Below, in pieces: positions 5,239 through 61,209 of a stretch of DNA of 64,000 bases. The notes beneath the pieces were generated by a model that saw only the letters and a list, made by a program, of their open reading frames with translations, did no database searches and was not told where the DNA came from. Origin of the DNA: a virus. The first letter of the stretch is position 1. Every line of letters starts with the position of its first letter. Made by a program: the position numbers and the translations under genes. Location of the stretch: positions 122,865 through 186,864 of IMG/VR virus record IMGVR_UViG_3300049793_000366. One strand, written 5' to 3'.

Positions 5239-6504
5239 ATGAAAGAAGAAAAATATATCGCAGTAATGTTTCCTTACCCATCTGGTAGCGGATTGCACAT
5301 AGGTCACTTTTATAACTATGCTATAATCGATTCATATTGTCGTTATTGGCGATATAAGGGAGTTAATGTATTTCAGCCATTTGGTTATGATTCATTTGGC
5401 TTGCCTGCTGAGAATTACGCGAAGAAAGTAGGTCGAGATCCTAAAGATGTTACATATGAAAACATCGAGAGGTTCAGAGCGCAAATGGATAAGATGGACA
5501 CTCAATATGAAGAGAAGTTGATAACATCTGACCCTTCTTACCAGAAATGGACTCAGTGGTTGTTCACTAAATTGAAAGAACACGGTTTGGTTTATAAAGC
5601 TAAAGGGGATGTGAATTACTGCCCTTCTTGTGAGACAGTATTGGCTCGTGAACAGGTTAAGAATGATAAGTGTGATAGATGTTCATCTGTTGTTGAAACC
5701 AGAAGCTTGGAGCAGTGGTATTTTAAGATAACTGCTTATAAAGACCGTTTGATTAAAAACTTGGATAAGATTGATTATCCACAAAGTACGATTAATGCTC
5801 AAAGAGCTTGGTTGGAGAATTTGCACGATTGGTGTGTTTCAAGACAACGTAGTTGGGGTTGCCCTATTCCAATAGAGGGTGAAACTGATACATTGGACAC
5901 ATTTGTAGATTCATCATTCTATTATATCAGATATTGCGACCCATATAATGACAACGAAATTTGTGCTAAAGATAAGTACAAACAAGTTGATGTTTATGTA
6001 GGTGGTAATGAACACGCTTGTATGCATTTGATTTACGCGAGGTTCATCAATATGTTCTTGTATGATATTGGTGTTGTCTCAGAAGAAGAACCATTTAAAA
6101 GAGTAATACATCAAGGTATGATTTTGAACAATGGTGCTAAAATGGCTAAATCGACTGGTAATGTTATTAATCCAGATGATTATAACTCTGATGAATTGAA
6201 ATTTTATTTGATGTTCATTGGTCACTATTTCGATGGTGGTTCTTGGTCTGACCAAAACATATCTGGTATTAAACGCTTTGTCAATAGATTTAAAGAATGG
6301 ATGTCGAGAGAGGGTGATGAAACGATTGACTTGGTTAAGTTTAAAGAAACTGTATTTGGTTATACAGAAGCTTTTAAATTCAATAAGGTTGTTAGTGAAT
6401 TCATGGTGTTGGTAAATCAGAACAGAACTAAAAATATCACAAAGGAATGTAAGAAGGAGATTGTTGATATTATTAAGATTTATATGCCATCAATAGAGGT
6501 ATAA
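5239..6504 (+). CDS. leuS: leucyl-tRNA synthetase-like protein, minimised (catalytic core only; no CP1 editing domain, truncated C-terminus)
   Basis: HIGH motif (FPYPSGSGLHIGHFYNY) and KMSKS variant (AKMAKSTGN). N-terminal ~220 aa are colinear with E. coli LeuRS (QPFGYDSFGLPAE, KITAYKDRL). The sequence then passes directly to CVSRQRSWGCPIPI where CP1 normally inserts. Only 421 aa. Confidence 0.8.
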   Translation: MKEEKYIAVMFPYPSGSGLHIGHFYNYAIIDSYCRYWRYKGVNVFQPFGYDSFGLPAENYAKKVGRDPKDVTYENIERFRAQMDKMDTQYEEKLITSDPSYQKWTQWLFTKLKEHGLVYKAKGDVNYCPSCETVLAREQVKNDKCDRCSSVVETRSLEQWYFKITAYKDRLIKNLDKIDYPQSTINAQRAWLENLHDWCVSRQRSWGCPIPIEGETDTLDTFVDSSFYYIRYCDPYNDNEICAKDKYKQVDVYVGGNEHACMHLIYARFINMFLYDIGVVSEEEPFKRVIHQGMILNNGAKMAKSTGNVINPDDYNSDELKFYLMFIGHYFDGGSWSDQNISGIKRFVNRFKEWMSREGDETIDLVKFKETVFGYTEAFKFNKVVSEFMVLVNQNRTKNITKECKKEIVDIIKIYMPSIEV

Positions 6505-11110: not shown

Positions 11111-14100
11111 TTAGTAGTTGAAAATAAAATCATAACCACCATTATCTTCGAGCCATTGTTCCAGCTCTTCTCGATTCAAGTCTCTGAGCTGTCTACCATC
11201 GGACGTTTTAATCTCAAATATAAAGTCATAATTTGATCCGAGTGAATTATTCTCACCCTCGTCACCAGTAAGCACTAATTTATCAAAGTCAATATCAGCG
11301 ATGTTACTGCTTTCTGGACCAGTATCAGTCATACCACCACTCAATACTTGCATAATTTCCTCTAATGTCATGTCATCCTGGTGTTTCTTACACAATTTTA
11401 TATGTGGTGCTTTTAATATAGCAGCTAATCCCAGTAATGCCCATACAAAGTCAATAAATCCGTTAATTATGGCTTCAATTAAACATAATATGGCATTCAA
11501 GAAGTATAGTGGTTGTTTTAACAACGTTTTAAACTGTGCTTTATTCACTTTGAATAGCTTAGGTATAAACACGATGTCAATAACTTCACTCAAGTCGAAA
11601 ATATAATCATCTGGTAAGTTCTTAAGGTCTTTAACCCATCCTGTAAATTTAGGAATATCGAATTTAATACCAATAAGAGCCAATAGATTCATAGGGTCGA
11701 AAAATTCCATAATCCATTTAAAGCTTAAGAATTCTTTTAATTTACTGACTAAGTTACCAGGATTAAGCTCCTTAAAGAAGTTCATTATATACTCAATAAT
11801 ACCAAAGATAATTTTCAATGGTGTTGTAATTAAGCTTAATAATAAATTAAATAATGGGTGTGGATAGATAGAGAATTTCTTTCTAAGTTTATCGATTTTA
11901 TCTCTTATTAATTTATTACCTCTATCTTTCTTTTGTGCTTCTTCATATAAATCAAGAGCTTGTTGAGCCATATTAGGGTCATCTGGATTGTTGTTTATTA
12001 AATCATCAGCTTGTTTAACCATTGTAGCTATTTCCTCTGATAGATAAGTATATTCATAGTCAATACCATCAACAAATTTACCAGTTGAATACCATTCGGT
12101 TATAACGTCATCGTAGTGTAAACCATTTATGTCAGCACTATATTGTTGTGAACCATTTATACTAGTAGCTTGAGCATTATTATTTGCGTTTGTACCCGCT
12201 TCTTTTATACCGGCTAAATCTTTTAGGTTATCATTTATGAATTTATCAAAAGCGTCCACATCTGGATCTTTTAGTAGTTTAAATATCAAAGTCAACGGTG
12301 GTTTTTTATCGAATAACGCGAATAATTCCCACTTAATACCAAATACAACAGATAAGAATTTAACAGCCGCAGAACCATCCCAAATGAATTTTGGAACACC
12401 AGTTTCAGGATGTATATGAATCCAGTTACTTGCTGGTGTACTCTTAATTTTATTAGTTAAGTCTTTGATATATTTCTCTTTCTGCTTAATATTACCAGCT
12501 AAGTCAGCTTGTTTTATTTTAGCAACATATGTTGGTATCGCTTTAACAGCTTTCTTAAATTCTGGTCCAAATATTTCAAAGTTTTCACCCAATTTCTCTG
12601 TTAGAATATCAAATAAGAAACTAGCGGGATTCTTTATTAAATCCATTAACTGCTTAATCTTAGGAATAAGCTTAGTCATTATATCTGATAAAATAGATAA
12701 GAAAACCTTAACGCCACCAATAGCGTGTGGTCTTTTATACCACATTGGACTTCCACCGCCTCCACCGCCACCTTGATTACCACCACCTGTACTTGGTTCA
12801 CCAGGATTAGCTTCCGGTAAAACTGCTTCTATTAAATAGATTGTTTCTAAGTCATCTTCGTTTGTAGGATATCTGAATATTTGAAATGGGTTTGGTTCTC
12901 CATACCCAGGTGTTTTTAATTCGGATGGTGCGGATGGTATCGCAAACTTAGAAGTAGCATAAGGATCCCCAACTTTAAGAAAGTTATTTGTAACTTGATT
13001 ACCAGCTATAATTTGACCAGAAGGAATATCTGCTGTTACTCTTATTGCATTAACTGGTAAATCACTAATATTTGTTGTTATCGTGGGTGTTTGTATATTA
13101 TTTATACTGACAACTTTTCTCTTATTCATAAGAGGTGATATTGGCCCCTTGTATGATTGCCATTTGACGATAGTATTAGAATCGGTGTAGAATGTGAATC
13201 CATTTGCTGTGTGATTCATATTAGGAACACCAACTTCACTTAATGTAGTTGTTACATATGTTTTCTTAACAGTATCACCTTGTGTTAATTTATAGTTGTT
13301 GAGTGTTACTGAATTGTTTTGATTTAAAGTAGCAACAGTCCAATTAGCTGATACAGTACCCCATGTTGATGGTTTTGTGTTAGTAGTTGTTCCATCATCA
13401 AAATAATATGTGATGACTTTACCGATACTTGAACCAGAACCAACTTTAATAGTTGTAACAGTTTTACCGCTAACTAGTGGTGTTGATAATTGTGCAACTG
13501 AATATGTACCACCAGATACATCTTGTTCTGCTGATGGTGAACCACCAGTTAAGTCATACTTTCTATATTCCCAGTTATCACCGATTTTTTTAATTTCATT
13601 AAATCTTAATCCATCATAGAAACTAAATTGTGTAAAGTCTGATGGTGCTGTTCTTGCCCATACATCAATATTAAAGGTTTTGTCATAATCAAGATTTCTC
13701 TGAAAGTTTAACCCAATATTATCATAAGATACGGAAGTAACATTATACGATGATTGTGTTGCTACTTCTGGGAATGTTTTATATTTTTCAAATAACGTTA
13801 TATCAAATGGTTTGTTATCAGACATTGATATATCATGTGAGTTATGTACAAATCTTAATATTGTAGCTGATTTCTCTGGTGTATTTTGTAAAGTATCATA
13901 AGTAATATTAAATGTAGTATCTACTTTTATAATTCTCATCTCATAATCACCTTCTGGGTCAATCAATAGTGGTTTACCGCCTATTACTTTTTCAACTGGC
14001 ATGAATGGTTGCTTAGGTACTTTTCCTAAGTTGTATTGTGATATTATATTACCAGGAATCCCAGGTAAAAACCCACCAGTTGATATAGCATCTAATTGTT

Positions 14101-15484
14101 TTTCAGATTCAGATGCATCAAATTTAGATAGTACAAAAGACCTTGCTTCTGCCTTTCTTGAAGGGAAATCGCTCACTACTTTGTTTCTAACTAACTTATC
14201 AAAATTAGTATCAGGCTTCGCCGCATCTACTTTTAGATTAACGAATTTATGTATGAAGTTTTTATACTCAACGATTTGACTACCTGTGAAATATTTCTCA
14301 TAGTTACCACCTGGATTCTCTGGGTCATCAGGCATATCATCACCATTGTCATCTTTCTTCTTTACTCTCTCCCAAGAACGAGGGTCATTTTCATATTTAG
14401 GTCCAGGATAATTTATACTAGATTCTCTATCACCCCAGTTTGATTTCCACCACCACACTGTTGGTCCCACAAAGCCGAATTGCCCGTACCATTTACCACT
14501 TTGTTCTAACCAAGATGGAGCCGCCATTGGCGAACCGTTAGAGTCAAATACTGCTAATACAATATTTTCAGGAAAGTCTTCTGTTGGATTGTCTTCATCT
14601 AATCCTAAGTCACCGTCTCCTACAACACCATCTAAATCTTCGAGACTTATACCACCTAAAAATTGAACAATATCATGATATGTTGTTTCATAATCTATAC
14701 CGTTTAATTTCTTACCAGTGGAATATACCTCTGATATAGTTTCATACTCCGCTTCATAGCCAGTGGTATCTACTGCACCATTTTGTGTTGATGGTAATTC
14801 GTCATTTAGTGATTCATCACCACCAGTTCCGGTATTGTTAGTGTTATTAGCATTACCAGCAGAGCTTGGAATACCACCCTTGACTTGTAAGTTTGATAAC
14901 TTACTTAATTTCTCTTGTAATAGAGATTTATCATAGTTAATCGCTCTTGGGTTTTTCTTTGGTCTAAGTCCTTTTGGTTTTGCTGGGTTTGTATAATCCA
15001 ATGGCACCGAAAGTCTTGCCGCACAATCTTCTAATTTAGCAAGAATACCAACGAAAATTTTAACAATTTCCATATATGGTTTTTGCGATTCAAATATGGC
15101 TTTAATAGCTGTCTTCTCAAGAGCTTTTAACCCCATGAAGTTATCAGCAGAAGTAAGAGAAATATCTCCTTCTGGTACAGAAATTTTACCGTTTGATTTA
15201 ACGTAAGATTTAGGATCCTTAGCCATCTTAGAGTTACTAACACTTTCGAAAATCTTAAGTGATTCTAAGCTTGGTGGTTTAGCCATACCTCTGGCTACCA
15301 TTTGCTTCTTAAGTGTATCAGCGATTCCAAGTTCACCGTTTGCGAACTTAACCAAATATGAAATATCTGGAATTAATAGAATAGGCTTACTTTTATCCTT
15401 ACCATCTGATGGCGGACCTGTAATTGCTTGTGTAAGCGGTAATGGTATTTTCGGTTGTAACGGTAAGTGAAATTCTATTGGCAT
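11111..15484 (-). CDS. giant virion-associated protein (1457 aa), possibly tape-measure or internal/ejected protein
   Basis: Very long ORF with hydrophobic helical segments near the C-terminus and a poly-Gly linker (GGGNQGGGGGGGS). No catalytic motif recognised. Confidence 0.55.
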   Translation of the reverse strand: MPIEFHLPLQPKIPLPLTQAITGPPSDGKDKSKPILLIPDISYLVKFANGELGIADTLKKQMVARGMAKPPSLESLKIFESVSNSKMAKDPKSYVKSNGKISVPEGDISLTSADNFMGLKALEKTAIKAIFESQKPYMEIVKIFVGILAKLEDCAARLSVPLDYTNPAKPKGLRPKKNPRAINYDKSLLQEKLSKLSNLQVKGGIPSSAGNANNTNNTGTGGDESLNDELPSTQNGAVDTTGYEAEYETISEVYSTGKKLNGIDYETTYHDIVQFLGGISLEDLDGVVGDGDLGLDEDNPTEDFPENIVLAVFDSNGSPMAAPSWLEQSGKWYGQFGFVGPTVWWWKSNWGDRESSINYPGPKYENDPRSWERVKKKDDNGDDMPDDPENPGGNYEKYFTGSQIVEYKNFIHKFVNLKVDAAKPDTNFDKLVRNKVVSDFPSRKAEARSFVLSKFDASESEKQLDAISTGGFLPGIPGNIISQYNLGKVPKQPFMPVEKVIGGKPLLIDPEGDYEMRIIKVDTTFNITYDTLQNTPEKSATILRFVHNSHDISMSDNKPFDITLFEKYKTFPEVATQSSYNVTSVSYDNIGLNFQRNLDYDKTFNIDVWARTAPSDFTQFSFYDGLRFNEIKKIGDNWEYRKYDLTGGSPSAEQDVSGGTYSVAQLSTPLVSGKTVTTIKVGSGSSIGKVITYYFDDGTTTNTKPSTWGTVSANWTVATLNQNNSVTLNNYKLTQGDTVKKTYVTTTLSEVGVPNMNHTANGFTFYTDSNTIVKWQSYKGPISPLMNKRKVVSINNIQTPTITTNISDLPVNAIRVTADIPSGQIIAGNQVTNNFLKVGDPYATSKFAIPSAPSELKTPGYGEPNPFQIFRYPTNEDDLETIYLIEAVLPEANPGEPSTGGGNQGGGGGGGSPMWYKRPHAIGGVKVFLSILSDIMTKLIPKIKQLMDLIKNPASFLFDILTEKLGENFEIFGPEFKKAVKAIPTYVAKIKQADLAGNIKQKEKYIKDLTNKIKSTPASNWIHIHPETGVPKFIWDGSAAVKFLSVVFGIKWELFALFDKKPPLTLIFKLLKDPDVDAFDKFINDNLKDLAGIKEAGTNANNNAQATSINGSQQYSADINGLHYDDVITEWYSTGKFVDGIDYEYTYLSEEIATMVKQADDLINNNPDDPNMAQQALDLYEEAQKKDRGNKLIRDKIDKLRKKFSIYPHPLFNLLLSLITTPLKIIFGIIEYIMNFFKELNPGNLVSKLKEFLSFKWIMEFFDPMNLLALIGIKFDIPKFTGWVKDLKNLPDDYIFDLSEVIDIVFIPKLFKVNKAQFKTLLKQPLYFLNAILCLIEAIINGFIDFVWALLGLAAILKAPHIKLCKKHQDDMTLEEIMQVLSGGMTDTGPESSNIADIDFDKLVLTGDEGENNSLGSNYDFIFEIKTSDGRQLRDLNREELEQWLEDNGGYDFIFNY

Positions 15485-24246: not shown

Positions 24247-24873
24247 ATGATAAAAGTTGGATTAACTGGTAATAGATATTCTGGTAAAAAAACAGTAGCT
24301 AAGTATTTTAAATCGCTTGGTGTGCCTGTGTTTGACGCTGATGTGGTGATGAAATTCATCATAAATTATAATACTCAAATATTTAAAAAAATTAAACAAG
24401 AGTTCGGGGAAAATATTTCGAATTTGGGTTTAATTGATACTCAGAGGTTTGATAGCGATGTTAAAATGAATAAGCTAATTGACCTGATTGAGTTTGATAT
24501 GTGGGAATCGTACAGTAGATGGTTGGTGAAAAATAGCGATGCGCCTTATACGATTTTTAAATCATCAATTTTATTTGAGAGAAATCTGAAAAGAAGTTTC
24601 GATAAGACGATAAATGTCTTCTGTCCTGCGAAGGTTCGCTCTGAGAGATATGCGAATGACTCGATAGCAGGGATTAGTAAGTGGACTGTACTTGAGATTA
24701 TGAAGCAAGAAATGGATGAATATGAGAAAAACGTATTGTCAGACTTCATTATACACAATTATGATGCTATATCACCAATTGATAATCAGGTTAATTTTAT
24801 CCACAAAGATTTAATTGAACTGGATGGGTCAAGTAAAAAGAAGTCAGACGAATTTGAAACTATTTTACCTTAA
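24247..24873 (+). CDS. coaE: dephospho-CoA kinase-like P-loop kinase
   Basis: VGLTGNRYSGKKTVAKYFKSLGVPVFDADVV is colinear with the CoaE N-terminus (LTGGIGSGKSTVA..G..VIDADII). Confidence 0.55.
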   Translation: MIKVGLTGNRYSGKKTVAKYFKSLGVPVFDADVVMKFIINYNTQIFKKIKQEFGENISNLGLIDTQRFDSDVKMNKLIDLIEFDMWESYSRWLVKNSDAPYTIFKSSILFERNLKRSFDKTINVFCPAKVRSERYANDSIAGISKWTVLEIMKQEMDEYEKNVLSDFIIHNYDAISPIDNQVNFIHKDLIELDGSSKKKSDEFETILP

Positions 24874-26662: not shown

Positions 26663-27301
26663 ATGTCCGTATATTTGTATATGGAAAAACATAATAAACT
26701 TCAGATTTCGCTTCGCTATTGGTTATTGGGTATAGCTCAAGAAAACCCAGAATACTACAAATGTATTGAAGCGATGGAATTTGCTTCTAAATTCCATAGT
26801 GGTAAAAGAAAAGATGGTGTAACTCCTGAGTTTACACATCAGTTGACAATCGCGCATTATATCCGAACAATCAAAAACTCTTTGATGTTTCCTGCTGACA
26901 CAATTACAACGGTTTTCTTACACGATGTACCAGAAGATTATGATGTTGCCATTCCAGAAATACAAAATCTTTTCGGTGAAAGAGTAGCACACTCTACGTG
27001 GTTACTTACAAAATTTCACAAAGGAGTTAAGAAAACTGATGAAGTCTACTTCGGTGATATGGCTAAAGATCCAATCGCATCAATTGGTAAAGGTGGTGAT
27101 AGAATGCACAATCTTCAAAGTATGGTTGGAGTGTTTACTATACCTAAGCAAAAAGACTATGTGAAAGAAGCAGAGGATAAAATTAAACCTATGATGAAAG
27201 AAGCACGTAGATTGTTTCCTCAGCAAGAATTAGCGTATGAAAATACTAAACTAATTATCAATTCACAGATTGAATTAATCAAAGCTACCTGGGTTAAATA
27301 A
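26663..27301 (+). CDS. small alarmone hydrolase (Mesh1/SpoT-like HD-domain (p)ppGpp hydrolase)
   Basis: KFHSGKRKDGVTPEFTHQLTIAHYI (H..Q.RK.G.P...H), FLHDVPEDYDV (HD) and GDRMHNL are colinear with the Mesh1/SpoT hydrolase domain. The start may be the second ATG at 26681. Confidence 0.7.
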   Translation: MSVYLYMEKHNKLQISLRYWLLGIAQENPEYYKCIEAMEFASKFHSGKRKDGVTPEFTHQLTIAHYIRTIKNSLMFPADTITTVFLHDVPEDYDVAIPEIQNLFGERVAHSTWLLTKFHKGVKKTDEVYFGDMAKDPIASIGKGGDRMHNLQSMVGVFTIPKQKDYVKEAEDKIKPMMKEARRLFPQQELAYENTKLIINSQIELIKATWVK

Positions 27302-27840
27302 TGAAGCCGAATTTAAATACAATCTCAATAGAGATACTTAAATCATTAGAACCTACCATAAAGGAGTTAGTGAAGCAACCTGAGATTTGGAATACACTTG
27401 ATGTAGATTATTTCCCACCTCGTGTTGAAAGACTCTATACTGACTATGATGGGTATCGTATCTATTTACACTATATCCACCCAACAGATAAGCCTTGTCT
27501 ATTTCACAAACACAGATGGCCTGCCGCATTTAAGCAAGTAGCTGGTGCGTATGAAATGGGTATCTCATATAGCGAAAAAGAAATTACATCAGATGAAGCA
27601 TATGACTTACCAATTTTAGCAAGATTCATTATTGGTATCAACTCTTACTATGAAATGACACAGACTGATTGTTTACATTTTGTTAGTCCTAAGGGTGAGT
27701 ATTCAGCGAGTATTATGATTACACCAAAGGATAAATATCCGGAGGCTGAATTCAGAAAAGAAGTTTTGGATAGAAAATTAGAAACATTTAGTGAACTTCG
27801 TAAGGTTACTTTACTACAATTCTTTAGTAAGGCAATTTAA
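27301..27840 (+). CDS. hypothetical protein
   Basis: 179 aa ORF. Confidence 0.55.
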   Translation: MKPNLNTISIEILKSLEPTIKELVKQPEIWNTLDVDYFPPRVERLYTDYDGYRIYLHYIHPTDKPCLFHKHRWPAAFKQVAGAYEMGISYSEKEITSDEAYDLPILARFIIGINSYYEMTQTDCLHFVSPKGEYSASIMITPKDKYPEAEFRKEVLDRKLETFSELRKVTLLQFFSKAI

Positions 27841-28527: not shown

Positions 28528-29016
28528 ATGAATACGTTTAAATTTAAAGAACCGTTTGTTGGAATTTTAGTGGGTCCACCGCTATCAGGTAAGTCCACAT
28601 GGCTTCGCGAGAATTTTGACGCTTCTGAAATAGTTATTATTTCTCGTGACCAAATTGTTTTGGACGTATATGGTTCTAACAATTACTCCGATGCTTTTAA
28701 TAATGTAAATCAGAAAGATGTAGATAGACAACTAATTGAAAATATCACTGATGCATCTAAAGGCACAAAAAACGTTATCATTGATATGACTCATATGTCC
28801 TCTAAAAGACGTAGATATAACCTCTCACATTTTCCGAATCACTATAAAGTAGCTTTCCTTTTCCCTATCTTGGATGAAGTTGAATATGCTCGTAGAAATG
28901 AAATGCGTAGACTTGAAGAGAATAAATGGATACCTGAACACGTAATCAAGAATATGATTTCTAGCTATCAACCAATTAAAGAAGAAGAAGGATTTAATAA
29001 AGTTATTTCAATATGA
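28528..29016 (+). CDS. P-loop kinase, polynucleotide kinase-like
   Basis: N-terminal P-loop ILVGPPLSGKSTWLRENF resembles the T4 Pnk kinase domain N-terminus. Confidence 0.5.
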   Translation: MNTFKFKEPFVGILVGPPLSGKSTWLRENFDASEIVIISRDQIVLDVYGSNNYSDAFNNVNQKDVDRQLIENITDASKGTKNVIIDMTHMSSKRRRYNLSHFPNHYKVAFLFPILDEVEYARRNEMRRLEENKWIPEHVIKNMISSYQPIKEEEGFNKVISI

Positions 29017-29462
29017 AGAAGAAAAGAATATACATAGACATGGATGGTGTTTTGTGTGATTTCTATGGTGCTGCACGAAAAGCATTAAAAGAAAACCCAA
29101 AACAACCATTTCCTCAAGCACAGTGGGGATTTTTCCTTAAGCTTAAACCAATTGATGGTGCGCTTGAAGCATTTAATTACTTATTCGAAAATTATGATGT
29201 TTGGATCTTAACCAGACCATCTACACGTAATGTTAATTGCTATACAGAAAAAGCACAATGGGTTTGGGACCACTTAGGTGAGAAAGCAGTTGATAAGCTT
29301 ATTCTATCATGTGATAAGAATTTATTAAAGGGTGATTATTTGATTGATGATAATCACTGGGATTTTGAAGGGGAGCATATTCATTTCAATACTGAAAAAT
29401 TTCCTAACTGGGAAACAGTAGTTAAGTATATAGATTCTTCTTGTAAACAACAATTAAATTAA
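29013..29462 (+). CDS. HAD-family 5'(3')-deoxyribonucleotidase-like phosphatase
   Basis: IYIDMDGVLCDF (HAD motif I DxDG) and DYLIDDN (motif IV), colinear with the NT5C family. Confidence 0.65.
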   Translation: MKKKRIYIDMDGVLCDFYGAARKALKENPKQPFPQAQWGFFLKLKPIDGALEAFNYLFENYDVWILTRPSTRNVNCYTEKAQWVWDHLGEKAVDKLILSCDKNLLKGDYLIDDNHWDFEGEHIHFNTEKFPNWETVVKYIDSSCKQQLN

Positions 29463-29468
29463 TTAACC

Positions 29469-29660
29469 TGGCGAGGTGGTGAAAGTAGACACTGGTGTTA
29501 TCTGTTAACCAATTGTAGAGAGCCGAAAGATGGGAAGCATTGACTTACTATTCGGGTAGCTTTAATAAACAGACGGAAAGACATTGGTCTTTTATTATCG
29601 AAAGATAGTTGCGAAGGAAACAACACAAATGCGGGTTCAAGCCCTGCTCTCGTCACAAAA
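29469..29660 (+). ncRNA. candidate structured RNA or tRNA 3'-half-like element (T-arm plus acceptor 3' strand)
   Basis: About 200-nt ORF-free, relatively GC-rich island. GCGGG-TTCAAGC-CCTGC resembles a T-arm with a 7-nt T-loop, followed by TCTCGTC-A. GGCGAGG at 29469-75 can pair with that strand including G-U wobbles. No canonical D or anticodon arm could be built. Confidence 0.25.
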
Positions 29661-29669
29661 AATAACAAC

Positions 29670-30071
29670 ATGGCAAACGCATGGATTCATTCAGTATCAT
29701 CAGTTAGAAAGTTTGGCGGTAAGCCAGAAGATTATTTAGAAATTCATCGTAAAATGGATTGTTCTAAATCGTATATTTCTGATAATCGACACAGAGCATT
29801 AACACATACAATGTTTTGGGTTAATGAGGTAATGGTTCCTCTATTTGGTTATACAATGACTAATAGTGATAACCGCGTAATTGCTGTCAAGGATATATGT
29901 GAAAGACATATACTCGAAGATTTCCATATGAAATTTATTCCCACCGCACAAGATTATCTTGAACACATGGAGTTCAAAGATTGGATGCAAAATGGTGTTA
30001 AAGGACACCCATCTTCTTATAATAAGCTTGCTGAAAAGAATGCTGAAAAAGAGAAAGAGACAACCGATTAA
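29670..30071 (+). CDS. hypothetical protein
   Basis: 133 aa ORF. Confidence 0.55.
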   Translation: MANAWIHSVSSVRKFGGKPEDYLEIHRKMDCSKSYISDNRHRALTHTMFWVNEVMVPLFGYTMTNSDNRVIAVKDICERHILEDFHMKFIPTAQDYLEHMEFKDWMQNGVKGHPSSYNKLAEKNAEKEKETTD

Positions 30072-33458: not shown

Positions 33459-34562
33459 TTATCCCATTGTTAAGAAGATTTTTCTGTTTAATCTATCAAC
33501 AGCAAGTACTTTAACTTGGATGTCTTGACCAGCAGAGAATTGTTTGGTGTTACTGAACTTTTCAACTTCTGATGTGTGAATTAAACCGATTGTCTCTTCG
33601 TCAAGGTTAACAAGAACACCAAATGCTTTGTTATCTTTAACTTTACCTTTGAACTTCTGTCCAACTTTGATACCATCCCAAAGTGATTCTTTTAGAATCT
33701 GGGTAAGAATAATCTTATCCTTGATGATTTCTTTTACGTAGAAGTCAACTGCTGTTCCAGCTTGAATTTGGTCAATTTTATCAGCCCATTCAGGATTGAT
33801 GTTTGATTTGTGAATCATACCAGTTAAACATTCGTTGAATTCGACGAACACACCGAATGGAGTAGTTCCAGTTACGTGTCCTGTGTAAACAGACTCAGCA
33901 TCTAACTTCTTAATCTCTTTTGGTATTAAAGATTGTAAGTATTTTTTGCGAGATACTATATACGTTCCTTTCTCGTCTGAAAAAGACTCCACCATAACGT
34001 TGAATGTTTTACCAACAATAACGCTTGGGTCATGTAGCTTGTTAACACCAGCTAAAGTGTTTGGCATGAATGCCGGGATTGTAACACCGTTGTATAGAAT
34101 ATCTAAATCATATCCAGCTGGGTTAAGTTCTTTAACTTTTGCTTCAACGAAGTCAGTAGATTCTAACGATTGTAACCCTAAGTGAATCGCTTGTTCATAA
34201 ATAGCTGAAATGCTACCTTTAATGAAGAATGGATTTTCTTGTTGGTCTGTTACTAACACGTCAATGTATTGACCATGTTTTAAATTTTGAGTATAAGAAA
34301 GTTCTTTCTTATTTGATTCAACACGAAGATAATCTTTATATCCAATATCGAATACTAAATATTCGTTGGTTGTTTCGATAAACTTTGCGTTGGTAATTTC
34401 ACCAGTCTTCGGCAAAACAAATTTGCCCAATTGGTAGAGCTTTAACATTTGCTCTGCATAAGGTTCAGTACAATAAAGTACATAACCGTCTTTTGTTTTT
34501 CTTGGTTTCTTAGACCACTCAAAAACATCTTTAAATTCTGCGTTTCCGTAGGTTTCTGTCAT
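33459..34562 (-). CDS. multi-S1-domain RNA-binding protein (ribosomal protein S1-like)
   Basis: C-terminal canonical S1 fold signature GKVKDNKAFGVLVNLDEETIGLIHTSEV...VKVLAVDRLNRKIFLT. Further S1-like repeats (GHVTGTTPFGVFVEFNECLTGMIHKS; GKTFNVMVESFSDEKGTYIVSRK). Confidence 0.6.
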   Translation of the reverse strand: MTETYGNAEFKDVFEWSKKPRKTKDGYVLYCTEPYAEQMLKLYQLGKFVLPKTGEITNAKFIETTNEYLVFDIGYKDYLRVESNKKELSYTQNLKHGQYIDVLVTDQQENPFFIKGSISAIYEQAIHLGLQSLESTDFVEAKVKELNPAGYDLDILYNGVTIPAFMPNTLAGVNKLHDPSVIVGKTFNVMVESFSDEKGTYIVSRKKYLQSLIPKEIKKLDAESVYTGHVTGTTPFGVFVEFNECLTGMIHKSNINPEWADKIDQIQAGTAVDFYVKEIIKDKIILTQILKESLWDGIKVGQKFKGKVKDNKAFGVLVNLDEETIGLIHTSEVEKFSNTKQFSAGQDIQVKVLAVDRLNRKIFLTMG

Positions 34563-48282: not shown

Positions 48283-49482
48283 ATGATAATTCAGTCACTT
48301 CTCGATTTAGACTATTACAAACTAACAATGGGTCAATTAGCTTTCTTAAGCTTCCCTGATGTTGAAATTGAAGCCGCCTTTAAAAACAGAAAATCAAATA
48401 TTCGATTAGCGGATATTATCCCGGTTGACCGATTGATATCCGAACTCAATCATGTTAGAACTCTGGTTCTTAGTAAAGAACAGTTAAAGTTCGTTGAAAA
48501 ACAGGGCATATTTAAGCCAGAATACCGAGAGTATCTATATCAGATAAACCGTAGCAATCCTCTATCCGAAGTACGAGTAGAGGTTGTTGATGGTCAATTT
48601 GATGTGAGAACAAAGGGTAAATGGCCTAATGCCATTTTGTGGGAAACAATAGTATTAGCTGTTATTAACGAGCTATATTATGAGTATAAATACCCAAATC
48701 TCTCTTATGATGAGGGTCTTACTAGACTTGCGAATAAGATTAAAATTCTTAAAAAGCATCCACAAATTAAATTCTCTGACTTCGGTACTCGAAGAAGAGC
48801 ATCAAGAACATGGCAAGCACTTGTTGTTAATAAATTAAGACAAGCATTACCTAATCAGTTTCTTGGAACATCGAATGTTCAGTTGGCTATGGATTATAAC
48901 ATAACTCCAATTGGAACATTCGCACATGAAATGCCAATGGTTGCTTCTGGTGTTTGGTATGATACTGATGTTGAATTAAAAGCATCACATGGTAGAGTAC
49001 TTGATATGTGGTATGAGTTATATGATGTTAAATTATCAATTGCTCTTACTGATACATTTGGAACCAAATTCTTCTTTGAAGACTTCGTAGACCGCGCACC
49101 AGTTTGGAATGGTTTACGACACGATTCTGGTGATCCATTTGAATTTGGTCATAAAGTATTAGCTTACTACGCATCACTGGGTATTGATTCTAAAACAAAA
49201 ACTATTGTGTTTAGTGATGGTTTGGATTTAGATATCATCATCCGACTCGAAGCAATATTTGGTAAATTAATTAAATGCGTTTTCGGTTGGGGTACGACTC
49301 TGACAAATGACATTGGGTATGAAACATTATCTATTGTTATGAAAGCCATCCGTGCTAATGGTAATGAATTGGTTAAGCTTTCTGATAACTTAAATAAAGC
49401 TACTGGTTCCGATGCTACTAAATCTCGATACATTAGTGTATTTGGGTATGACAATCAAAAGCGTGAAGAGTGTGTAGTCTAA
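48283..49482 (+). CDS. pncB: nicotinate phosphoribosyltransferase
   Basis: Colinear with E. coli PncB: SLLDLDYYKLTM, FGTRRRAS, GLRHDSGDPFEFG, IVFSDGLDLD, VKLSDN. Confidence 0.85.
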   Translation: MIIQSLLDLDYYKLTMGQLAFLSFPDVEIEAAFKNRKSNIRLADIIPVDRLISELNHVRTLVLSKEQLKFVEKQGIFKPEYREYLYQINRSNPLSEVRVEVVDGQFDVRTKGKWPNAILWETIVLAVINELYYEYKYPNLSYDEGLTRLANKIKILKKHPQIKFSDFGTRRRASRTWQALVVNKLRQALPNQFLGTSNVQLAMDYNITPIGTFAHEMPMVASGVWYDTDVELKASHGRVLDMWYELYDVKLSIALTDTFGTKFFFEDFVDRAPVWNGLRHDSGDPFEFGHKVLAYYASLGIDSKTKTIVFSDGLDLDIIIRLEAIFGKLIKCVFGWGTTLTNDIGYETLSIVMKAIRANGNELVKLSDNLNKATGSDATKSRYISVFGYDNQKREECVV

Positions 49483-52395: not shown

Positions 52396-53250
52396 ATGAA
52401 TACGAAAAAAGTATCAAATCACATCACCAATTGGTTAAAAGATTTTGCATTAAATACTAAACAAAACGGTTACGTTATCGGAGTATCTGGTGGAATTGAC
52501 TCCGCAGTTGTTTCGACACTATGCGCCCGTACTGGATTACCACTTATTGTTGTGAGTATGCCTATTCATCAAGAAGCTAATCAAGTTTCTCGCGCACAAG
52601 AGCATATGGATTGGTTGAAAAAAAATTATCCAAATGTAACACAGTTTGAATTTGACTTAACATCAGTTTATGATTCATTCGTAACTAAGTTAGATGGTAA
52701 AACACATTTTATTTCAAAGCCTGAGCATGATACACAGGTTGCTGATAAAATGTTCTTAACACTTGCGAATACTCGCTCTCGTTTGAGAATGACAACACTT
52801 TATTCACTTGCCGGATTAAACAATATGCTTGTTGCTGGTACTGGTAATAAAGTAGAAGACTTTGGTGTAGGATTCTTCACTAAGTATGGTGATGGTGGAA
52901 TTGATGTATCACCAATCGGTGAGTTGATGAAATCTGAGGTATACATATTGGGTGCTGAATTAGGTATAAACCAAGCAATACTTTCAGCAAGACCTACTGA
53001 TGGTCTTTGGGATGATGGTAGAACAGATGAAGACCAAATTGGTGCTACTTATGATGAACTTGAGTGGGCTATGGGTGTTCAAGAAGAATTGGGAAATAAT
53101 CCTGAGACTTTATACGAAATGAACGAAAGACAAACGATAGTGTGGAATATTTATTTGTCTCGACACACCGCTAACTCACATAAAATGCAAATGCCACCAG
53201 TTTGCTCATTAAAAGGAATTAAATATGATGAAGAAGTTGTTGCACAGTAA
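52396..53250 (+). CDS. nadE: NH3-dependent NAD+ synthetase
   Basis: PP-loop GVSGGIDSAV and GFFTKYGDGGIDVSPIG, colinear with E. coli NadE. Confidence 0.85.
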   Translation: MNTKKVSNHITNWLKDFALNTKQNGYVIGVSGGIDSAVVSTLCARTGLPLIVVSMPIHQEANQVSRAQEHMDWLKKNYPNVTQFEFDLTSVYDSFVTKLDGKTHFISKPEHDTQVADKMFLTLANTRSRLRMTTLYSLAGLNNMLVAGTGNKVEDFGVGFFTKYGDGGIDVSPIGELMKSEVYILGAELGINQAILSARPTDGLWDDGRTDEDQIGATYDELEWAMGVQEELGNNPETLYEMNERQTIVWNIYLSRHTANSHKMQMPPVCSLKGIKYDEEVVAQ

Positions 53251-60195: not shown

Positions 60196-61209
60196 TTATT
60201 CAGCGAATGAAAGGTTAAGCTGTTCGATTGATTGTTTCTCTTCAAGACTAATAATAGCCCTTGCTATCATTTTGTCGCATGATATAACGTGTAACTTGTC
60301 GGATTGTTTATTAACAGCTATTGTGTCTGATATAATCAATTCAGTTAATACAGAAGAGTTAAGATTCTCGATAGCATTTCCGGATAGAATACCATGTGTA
60401 GCAATAGCACGTACTGACCTAGCACCATTTTCCATTACCAACTCACTTGCTTTCTTTAAAGTACCTAATGTATCAGCCATATCATCTATGATAACAACAT
60501 TGCGGTCTTTTACATCAGCACCCATTAATTCCATTGAATGAATTTCATTTGGTTTAACTCGGCGTTTATTTATCTGAGCGAAGTGTGCTTCTGGGAAATA
60601 TTTAGCAAAGTCTAATGCTCTTTTTACACCACCTTGGTCTGGTGACATTATTGTTAGATTTTCAAGAGCAAGTGACTTGATGTAGTTTGTGAAAATTTTA
60701 CCACCATTTAAGTGAATAACTGGTATGTTGAAGAATCCTTGAATTGCAGATGCGTGTAAATCAATTGTGATGATTCGTGTTGCTCCACCTCTTTCATAGG
60801 CATCAGCCATAACCCTTGCTCCAATTGATGAACGAAGGTGGTCTACCTTATCTTGACGTGAGTAACCATAATATGGTGTCACGAGTGTTATTTCTTTAGC
60901 ACCAGCTCTTTTAGCAGCATCTAATATCAACATAGTTTCCACGATAGAATCAGAAGAACTTGTTGTTTGTATAATATAGATATCTTTACCACGCACAGAC
61001 TCATTGAAAGTTGGGAATATCTCACCATCTTTGAATTTCTCAATCTTTAAATCACCAAGACCCGTACTTTGTGGTGTCAGTAGACTTGTAGCTTGTTGCG
61101 ACAATACGATTTTATTAATACTATCAGCGAGTGATTCGCTTGATGTTCCAGAAAAAATAGTGAATGTGTTCATAATAGTGGTATTAATTTTTTGATGAAA
61201 TGTTTTCAT
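60196..61209 (-). CDS. prs: ribose-phosphate pyrophosphokinase (PRPP synthetase)
   Basis: Colinear with E. coli Prs: FKDGEIF, YYGYSRQDK, IITIDLHASAIQGFFNIPVIHL, PRPP-binding loop VVIIDDMADTLGTL. Confidence 0.85.
   Translation of the reverse strand: MKTFHQKINTTIMNTFTIFSGTSSESLADSINKIVLSQQATSLLTPQSTGLGDLKIEKFKDGEIFPTFNESVRGKDIYIIQTTSSSDSIVETMLILDAAKRAGAKEITLVTPYYGYSRQDKVDHLRSSIGARVMADAYERGGATRIITIDLHASAIQGFFNIPVIHLNGGKIFTNYIKSLALENLTIMSPDQGGVKRALDFAKYFPEAHFAQINKRRVKPNEIHSMELMGADVKDRNVVIIDDMADTLGTLKKASELVMENGARSVRAIATHGILSGNAIENLNSSVLTELIISDTIAVNKQSDKLHVISCDKMIARAIISLEEKQSIEQLNLSFAE

Follow-up and report, generated by a model that had tools for sequence, protein, structure and literature searches.

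Alarmone signalling is a general brake on phage growth and is also the output of abortive-infection toxins (CapRel, FaRel, PhRel), and a hydrolase carried by a phage would be a simple way to disarm both the stringent brake and the alarmone toxins. Jimmy et al. (2020) tested five toxic alarmone synthetases (toxSAS) and found each of them neutralised by the stand-alone small alarmone hydrolases (SAHs) of phages PVP-SE1 and SSU5; they proposed that incoming phages use such SAHs to bypass alarmone-mediated defence. It has also been published that the stringent response restricts phages and that phages counter this response by other means too, and an 'HD-alarmone PDease' has been described in jumbo phages (Iyer et al. 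2021, Viruses 13:63). Stand-alone alarmone hydrolases of phages and jumbo phages are already in print, and the protein analysed here (the query) already carries a name from the JGI pipeline, '(p)ppGpp synthase/HD superfamily hydrolase'. Concept, precedent and annotation all pre-exist; the query adds to the known phage SAHs a well-conserved clade from huge phages, mostly annotated 'hypothetical', and the only point about it that is not routine is a Tyr-to-Glu change in the active site that holds across the clade.

Gene and family identity

The gene lies in a window of 64 kb, the whole stretch of DNA that was analysed, which has a G+C content of 32.6%. The open reading frame runs from an ATG to a TAA and its presence was confirmed. 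Its true start is probably the ATG at 26681 rather than the one at 26663, because both P0001, a 206-aa protein 100% identical to the query, and the orthologue on the closest related locus, L001, begin at the position of query Met7.

26663..27301, plus strand: open reading frame as first read, stand-alone RSH-type hydrolase (SAH), 212 aa and stop codon
26681..27301, plus strand: putative true coding sequence, 206 aa, from the second ATG (Met7), following the starts of P0001 and the L001 orthologue

A promoter scan returned a TTGCTA-17-TATAAT site ending at 26664, which we do not take as evidence of a promoter because such promoter-like sites are fewer in the sequence than in its shuffled version (25 versus 41.6).

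The earlier note, made from the letters of the DNA, had read the product as a Mesh1/SpoT-like hydrolase, and four lines of evidence agree on this identity, namely searches with domain models, searches with a profile, a predicted structure compared with known folds, and residue conservation among 62 homologues. The query protein scores 33.6 bits (E 3.8e-8) with PF13328 (Pfam HD_4), for which the curated cut-off is 27.2, and a precomputed match to the same family is present in all but one of the 120 homologues listed. The NCBIfam model spoT_relA matches the N-terminal hydrolase part of the query (8e-13). When the query was compared with all PDB sequences using phmmer, 22 matches were returned, including T. 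thermophilus Rel (TtRel) at 9e-8, and 21 of these have the RelA/SpoT-type hydrolase fold (Rel, SpoT, RelA, Mesh1 and small alarmone hydrolases); the sole match outside it, Lmo0740, is marginal (E 0.66). A profile built from the 62 homologues finds the hydrolase domains of SpoT, Rel, P. aeruginosa SAH (PaSAH) and Mesh1 in the PDB, at E-values of 1.7e-18 to 3e-7, and nothing else. The E-values of this profile against four representatives are as follows.

A. baumannii SpoT: E 1.7e-18
T. thermophilus Rel: E 1.5e-16
P. aeruginosa SAH: E 3.7e-14
Drosophila Mesh1: E 3.8e-12

The protein was also said to stand alone without a synthetase domain, which is borne out with one amendment to its length, probably 206 and not 212 aa. 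HD_4 is the sole Pfam match above its curated cut-off in this single-domain architecture of 206–212 aa, the two other Pfam matches being weak, sub-threshold and attributable to chance (E 0.011 and 0.12), and a crude regular-expression search finds no occurrence of the E-x-Q-x-R-T synthetase hallmark in the window, which covers 64 kb out of the roughly 712 kb of the contig. The data support assignment of the query as a predicted single-domain Mesh1/SpoT-like RSH hydrolase, an SAH, with an intact active site. Its clade corresponds to PHROG 15275, which is labelled 'unknown function'.

Predicted structure

An AlphaFold2 model built on the 62-homologue alignment is all-helical, with 11 helices, a pLDDT of 95.9 and a pTM of 0.91. 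The best 45 matches of this model among PDB structures, searched with Foldseek, are all RSH-family (RelA/SpoT-type) structures, the first being P. aeruginosa SAH with a TM-score of 0.71 normalised on the query and 0.85 on the target, and an rmsd of 2.2 Å. Among predicted viral structures, the orthologue from phage GAP32 is the best match (TM 0.86), followed by many viral proteins that are named '(p)ppGpp synthetase/hydrolase' or 'HD domain protein'.

Active site and substrate pocket

The HD motifs were described in the earlier note as present and colinear with Mesh1/SpoT, and the motifs HSGKRKDGVTPEFTH, FLHDVPED and GDRMHNL were indeed found in that order, as a colinear set that lies far beyond chance expectation. 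The alignments from phmmer, hmmsearch, hhalign and MAFFT give a single, gap-free register for the active site, from which the following elements and residue equivalences are read.

Residues 45-59, plus strand: H45/H59 region, HSGKRKDGVTPEFTH
Residues 85-92, 26915-26938, plus strand: FLHDVPED
Residues 145-151, 27095-27115, plus strand: GDRMHNL
26807..26815, plus strand: R49-K50-D51, from hhalign and phmmer; aligns with MESH1 R24-K25-D26 and TtRel L42-R43-R44
26828..26842, plus strand: E56-F-T-H59-Q60; H59 is the first metal ligand
26921..26938, plus strand: H87-D88-V-P-E91-D92; HD metal ligands and catalytic Glu-Asp pair
27089..27112, plus strand: K143-G-G-D146-R147-M-H-N150; fourth metal ligand (Asp) and Asn of the KLADRxHN motif
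Metal ligands: query H59, H87, D88, D146; TtRel H52, H76, D77, D146; MESH1 H35, H61, D62, D122
Catalytic pair: query E91, D92; TtRel E80, D81; MESH1 E65, D66
Conserved Asn: query N150; TtRel N150; MESH1 N126

On careful alignment, all four metal-binding residues (H59, H87, D88, D146) are retained. Together with E91, D92 and N150 they are invariant in 62/62 homologues, which are 49–76% identical to the query; as the ligands and catalytic residues do not vary across this range, the active site is under purifying selection. The further residues R49, D51, E56, Q60, K117, K143, R147 and F158 are also invariant in these homologues, and K50 is kept in at least 90% of them. Such a pattern is typical of an active rather than a decayed enzyme and suggests that the query retains catalysis. 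In the P-Y-x-x-H-P motif, Glu and Gln stand where Tyr and Pro are usual, which could instead point to a catalytically dead HD-fold protein that binds or sequesters alarmones or has a structural role; we regard this as very improbable, since the metal ligands and catalytic residues are all invariant not only in the 62 homologues but also in the proteins of GAP32 and RsoM2USA, at 31–46% identity.

The P-Y-x-x-H-P motif is a conserved feature of the RSH family that does not formally define it, and the query reads P55-E56-F-T-H59-Q60 in its place. E56 (for Tyr) and Q60 (for Pro) are invariant in the query clade, and E56 is also found in GAP32 and RsoM2USA, while the Tyr is kept at this position in the long RSHs, in MESH1 and in the SSU5 enzyme PaSpo. 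According to the MESH1 preprint, the Tyr of this motif (Y32) contacts the scissile phosphate. The E56 carboxylate might make a water-bridged contact or hold a second metal; both are possibilities. Taken further, the jumbo- and huge-phage clade of PHROG 15275 could form a branch of the RSH hydrolases with a function of its own, in which E56, Q60 and F158 retune the chemistry or the substrate, possibly through a second metal site or through a preference for pyrophosphorylated tRNA ends or another immune nucleotide over (p)ppGpp. If this were true, the clade would be a dedicated counter-defence enzyme and not a general alarmone hydrolase, a prospect to which we give only a small chance. The reading that we prefer for the query is that of an active alarmone hydrolase.

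The base-binding pocket was compared with those of three characterised enzymes. In TtRel, R43, R44 and M157 stack on the guanine while S45, N150 and T153 form hydrogen bonds with it, and in the (p)ppApp-specific hydrolase Aph1 the positions of R43-R44-S45 are occupied by D24-K25-A26 (both from the Aph1 paper). The query has K50-D51-G52 at these positions, S153 in place of T153, and V157 followed by an extra invariant residue, F158. In the MESH1 preprint, R24 is described as stacking on the base and K25 as contacting the ribose, the 5'-diphosphate and N7, and its authors state that the R24/K25 arrangement cannot tell adenine from guanine. As the query pocket resembles that of Mesh1 (R-K-D), it gives no basis for predicting guanine specificity. 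Given the Tyr-to-Glu change, and K50/D51 in place of TtRel R43/R44, guanine specificity is uncertain, and so is the exact leaving group.

Distribution of the clade

The query was taken in the earlier note to be phage-encoded, and both the window and the relatives agree with this. PHROG matches in the window include a baseplate wedge subunit and head-decoration/virion proteins, and full-length relatives are almost confined to jumbo or huge phages. P0001 comes from a 711,805-bp JGI contig, and an orthologue that is 77% identical, with the same local gene order, is found on a 709,085-bp NCBI contig. No near-identical DNA is present among 50,697 GenBank phage records, which indicates that the phage itself has not been described. 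Full-length tblastn matches in GenBank come from 36 records, 35 of which are genomes of 337–469 kb; the lone small record is that of Klebsiella phage phiKp_21 (46.8 kb). These jumbo phages include RsoM2USA (45% identity to the query), Phosso (43%), and the RaK2-like, GAP32/CBB-like, XbC2 and XaC1 phages (about 31%), and nearly all of the GenBank relatives are annotated 'hypothetical protein'. In IMG/VR there are 64 loci; for 24 of these the contig is 150 kb or longer, up to 608 kb. On the cellular side only 21 loci, mostly on MAG contigs, were found in 185,579 species-representative genomes, which rules out a typical bacterial housekeeping SAH.

Gene neighbourhood and other genes of the window

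The SAH gene sits within a run of plus-strand genes, with the following neighbours.

24247..24873, plus strand: dephospho-CoA kinase (CoaE) homologue, NCBIfam equivalog at 73.2 versus a cut-off of 65.55 bits
26118..26318, plus strand: 66-aa Cys-rich protein (DUF6171, phrog_13558), just upstream of the hydrolase and overlapping the open reading frames on both sides
27301..27840, plus strand: 179-aa cupin-fold protein, with a one-base overlap with the hydrolase stop codon
28528..29016, plus strand: PNK-like P-loop kinase (phrog_505, 5.4e-17; AAA_33; weak match to the bacterial Pnkp kinase domain)
29013..29462, plus strand: NT5C/HAD-type nucleotidase, overlapping the PNK-like gene

The 179-aa product has no Pfam, PHROG, NCBIfam or PADLOC match. 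It has more than 150 homologues at 50–77% identity, and an AlphaFold model (pLDDT 89) searched with Foldseek shows a cupin fold, with matches of the cysteine dioxygenase, lyxose isomerase and TM1459 types; its conserved histidines are H57, H60, H69, H71 and H126. The CoaE homologue, 1.8 kb upstream of the SAH gene and kept in the 709-kb relative, is an unusual gene for a phage.

Synteny was assessed by blastp of 13 window neighbours against the open reading frames within 6 kb in 67 related loci. No conserved gene partner of the SAH emerged across these loci: synteny is seen only with the closest relative, L001, which is also the only one in which the cupin gene adjoins the hydrolase, and recurrence among the 67 loci is limited to three for the cupin and four, the closest ones, for the PNK-like kinase. 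An operon or toxin-antitoxin reading is rejected on this basis, and the absence of a conserved partner fits an enzyme that would act alone on a diffusible substrate. Neither the SAH nor four of its neighbours match a PADLOC defence model. A toxSAS-SAH module with a type IV antitoxin such as ATfaRel was also considered and set aside, as the neighbours are the cupin, Cys-rich, PNK-like and HAD nucleotidase genes and the window lacks a synthetase motif; the same crude search of the 64 kb likewise argues against self-immunity to a phage-encoded synthetase toxin.

The PNK-like kinase and the HAD nucleotidase, which begin 1.2 kb downstream of the SAH gene on the same strand, look together like a kinase-phosphatase split into two genes, for either RNA-end repair or the metabolism of dNMPs. 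Their presence bears on whether the main substrate could be tRNA pyrophosphorylated at its 3'-CCA end by a toxSAS defence that targets translation, such as CapRel, FaRel2 or PhRel, in which case the query would serve RNA-repair counter-defence by restoring aminoacylation. In published work, MESH1 and the SAH ATfaRel strip the pyrophosphate from the CCA end and make tRNA modified by FaRel2 chargeable again, and toxSAS that target tRNA are neutralised in vivo by phage SAHs (Jimmy et al. 2020). The query also has the R-K-D base-contact motif of Mesh1, which reads adenine as well as guanine. However, only 4 of the 67 loci have the PNK-like neighbour, and its position varies among them; no domain or surface for RNA binding was identified in the query, and its best sequence matches are the long RSH enzymes that hydrolyse (p)ppGpp. 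In known SAHs, moreover, activities on tRNA and on nucleotides are not mutually exclusive. We consider it unlikely that tRNA is the main substrate, and continue to favour alarmone nucleotides.

Further genes of nucleotide and cofactor metabolism are found elsewhere in the window.

48283..49482, plus strand: nicotinamide phosphoribosyltransferase-like protein (NAMPT), phrog_448
52396..53250, plus strand: NAD synthase, PF02540 at 1.2e-42
60196..61209, minus strand: PRPP synthetase

These three look like an NAD+ salvage and synthesis set of the kind that phages use against NAD-depleting defences. Along with the CoaE homologue and the NT5C-like nucleotidase close to the SAH gene, they raise the question of whether the query could be a Mesh1-like phosphatase of a 2'- or 3'-phosphorylated metabolic nucleotide (NADPH, CoA/dephospho-CoA or PAPS) engaged in nucleotide and cofactor remodelling instead of alarmone signalling. 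Human MESH1 dephosphorylates NADPH, and a crystal structure of it with PAPS exists; its R-K-D motif is present in the query, and a Glu in place of the phosphate-contacting Tyr could suit a different leaving group. Yet the nucleotide and cofactor neighbours are conserved beside the gene only in the closest relative, the residues that hold nicotinamide in MESH1 (W138 and R142) fall in a region where hhalign gives no convincing alignment, and the profile is nearer to SpoT/Rel than to Mesh1 (70 versus 47–49 bits). We judge a metabolic phosphatase to be improbable, and an alarmone hydrolase remains the preferred reading.

The earlier note had placed the hydrolase within a translation-maintenance theme of the genome, which stands in part: the window encodes a MetRS-like synthetase core and an S1-domain protein, but default ARAGORN finds no canonical tRNA gene in it.

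5239..6504, plus strand: MetRS-like class I aminoacyl-tRNA synthetase core, 421 aa, PF09334 at 1.7e-40
33459..34562, minus strand: 367-aa protein with a C-terminal S1 RNA-binding domain

The window also contains three very large open reading frames. Two of them have no PHROG match, and one matches only PHROG 29329, of 'unknown function' (3.9e-87).

11111..15484, minus strand: 1457 aa
35745..39707, minus strand: 1320 aa
39711..42911, minus strand: 1066 aa

A structured-RNA candidate downstream

An element with the features of a structured RNA follows the NT5C-like gene.

29470..29656, plus strand: structured-RNA candidate of about 170–190 nt, between the NT5C-like open reading frame and the open reading frame 29670..30071

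When introns are allowed, ARAGORN reads this element as a tRNA-Phe(GAA) split by a 115-nt insert. In the 709-kb relative, however, conservation covers the 'insert' (81% identity over 140 nt) and leaves out the tRNA-like flanks. A second copy lies at L001:12528-12702, with a folding z of -4.5 and a closing helix of 18 bp. In a comparison that comprises these two copies, one small hairpin keeps its stem while the loop differs (AAGAC/GUCUU), and in another the bases of both strands have changed in a way that preserves the pairing (UCAC-AAAA-GUGA versus UAUC-GAAA-GAUA). Rfam at both thresholds, the tmRNA and mitochondrial-tRNA modes of ARAGORN and an exact-pattern scan of IMG/VR returned nothing for the element, and 33 metagenome matches were dismissed as chance matches to a 19-mer.

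Proposed function

The query has the RSH fold and an active site that is intact and strongly conserved, it stands alone as a single domain, and its family is found mainly in huge phages. We think it probable that it is an active, metal-dependent 3'-pyrophosphohydrolase of the RSH fold, a single-domain SAH that clears alarmones in infection. A very large phage would make this enzyme during infection, and the enzyme would remove the 3'-diphosphate from alarmone nucleotides to give GDP/GTP or ADP/ATP. It is likely to act on (p)ppGpp and, because its base pocket is Mesh1-like, probably on (p)ppApp as well. Removal of the alarmones would stop the alarmone-driven shutdown of growth and translation, whether the alarmones come from the RelA/SpoT stringent response of the host or from toxic alarmone synthetases deployed as an abortive-infection defence. 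The substrates and what the phage gains are inferred, as is the metal, taken by analogy to be Mn2+.

The higher similarity to SpoT/Rel favours (p)ppGpp as the substrate, while the Mesh1-like pocket and the PNK-like neighbour would keep (p)ppApp and pyrophosphorylated tRNA in play. The earlier note had likewise left the substrate open, and (p)ppGpp, (p)ppApp and pyrophosphorylated tRNA are not separable from sequence. As to the benefit, degrading alarmones to keep the host productive, as proposed in the earlier note, is what is usually inferred for genes of this type, and a possible role against toxSAS is at least as well supported by published experiments.

Comparison with known systems

The hydrolase domains of the long RSH enzymes (A. 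baumannii SpoT, 7qpr/7qps; T. thermophilus Rel, 6s2t; RelSeq, 1vj7) are the best profile matches of the query, at 1.7e-18 to 3e-15, and share with it the H...HD..ED...DRxHN active site with identical spacing. The alignment to SpoT covers 207 columns (TM-score on the query 0.70) and takes in the N-terminal helix and the helices that follow the core. In contrast to the long RSHs, the query has no synthetase, TGS or ACT domain, and would therefore lack their reciprocal regulation. Relative to TtRel, the guanine contacts R43/R44/S45 become K50/D51/G52 and Tyr49 becomes Glu56, and the query has the extra invariant Phe158 beside the position of Met157.

The closest solved structure is PaSAH (6yvc, 6z3n/6z3o), a (p)ppGpp and (p)ppApp hydrolase that is single-domain and stand-alone like the query and superimposes on it over about 181–183 columns. 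The two are only about 20% identical, and the profile aligns with the PaSAH sequence only from residue 67 onward; PaSAH is also chromosomal and bacterial, whereas the query is viral. Metazoan Mesh1/human MESH1 (3nr1, 5vxa) is matched by hhalign with a probability of 97% (E 1.6e-11) at 23% identity, and has in common with the query the R-K-D motif before the first metal His and all of the catalytic residues. The two differ in that MESH1 Tyr32 corresponds to Glu56, and in that the model of the query has one more helix at the N-terminus and a helical hairpin at the C-terminus that is longer.

SSU5 PaSpo and PVP-SE1 PbcSpo resemble the query in being phage-encoded proteins of about 210 aa with a single HD domain and no adjacent cognate toxin, and in their proposed role of countering alarmone-based growth arrest. 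PaSpo (SSU5_099) is distant in sequence, with a BLASTP match of 7e-6 over the N-terminal 84 aa and an hhalign probability of 95% at about 27% identity over 131 columns, and it keeps the Tyr and has DLLDN in place of the query DRxHN; this identity and the DLLDN/DRxHN difference rule out membership of the PaSpo subfamily. An Aph1-type (p)ppApp-specific hydrolase is likewise rejected on the three signature positions compared, K50-D51-G52 versus D24-K25-A26. Aph1 (7smg) is a weak fold match (E 4e-3) with no sequence-profile match at E ≤0.01, and has a compact 8-helix fold without terminal helices, whereas the 11 helices of the query include N- and C-terminal ones. The jumbo-phage example of Iyer et al. 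(2021), BBI90576.1, resembles the query in predicted activity and kind of genome.

By profile score the query is closer to the hydrolase domains of long RSHs than to any solved SAH, and PaSAH is its nearest match in fold. It shows all the defining features of an SAH that could be tested, except for the family-typical Tyr. Two features of the query stand out: an invariant Glu in place of the phosphate-contacting Tyr of MESH1, and a Mesh1-like R-K-D base-binding motif.
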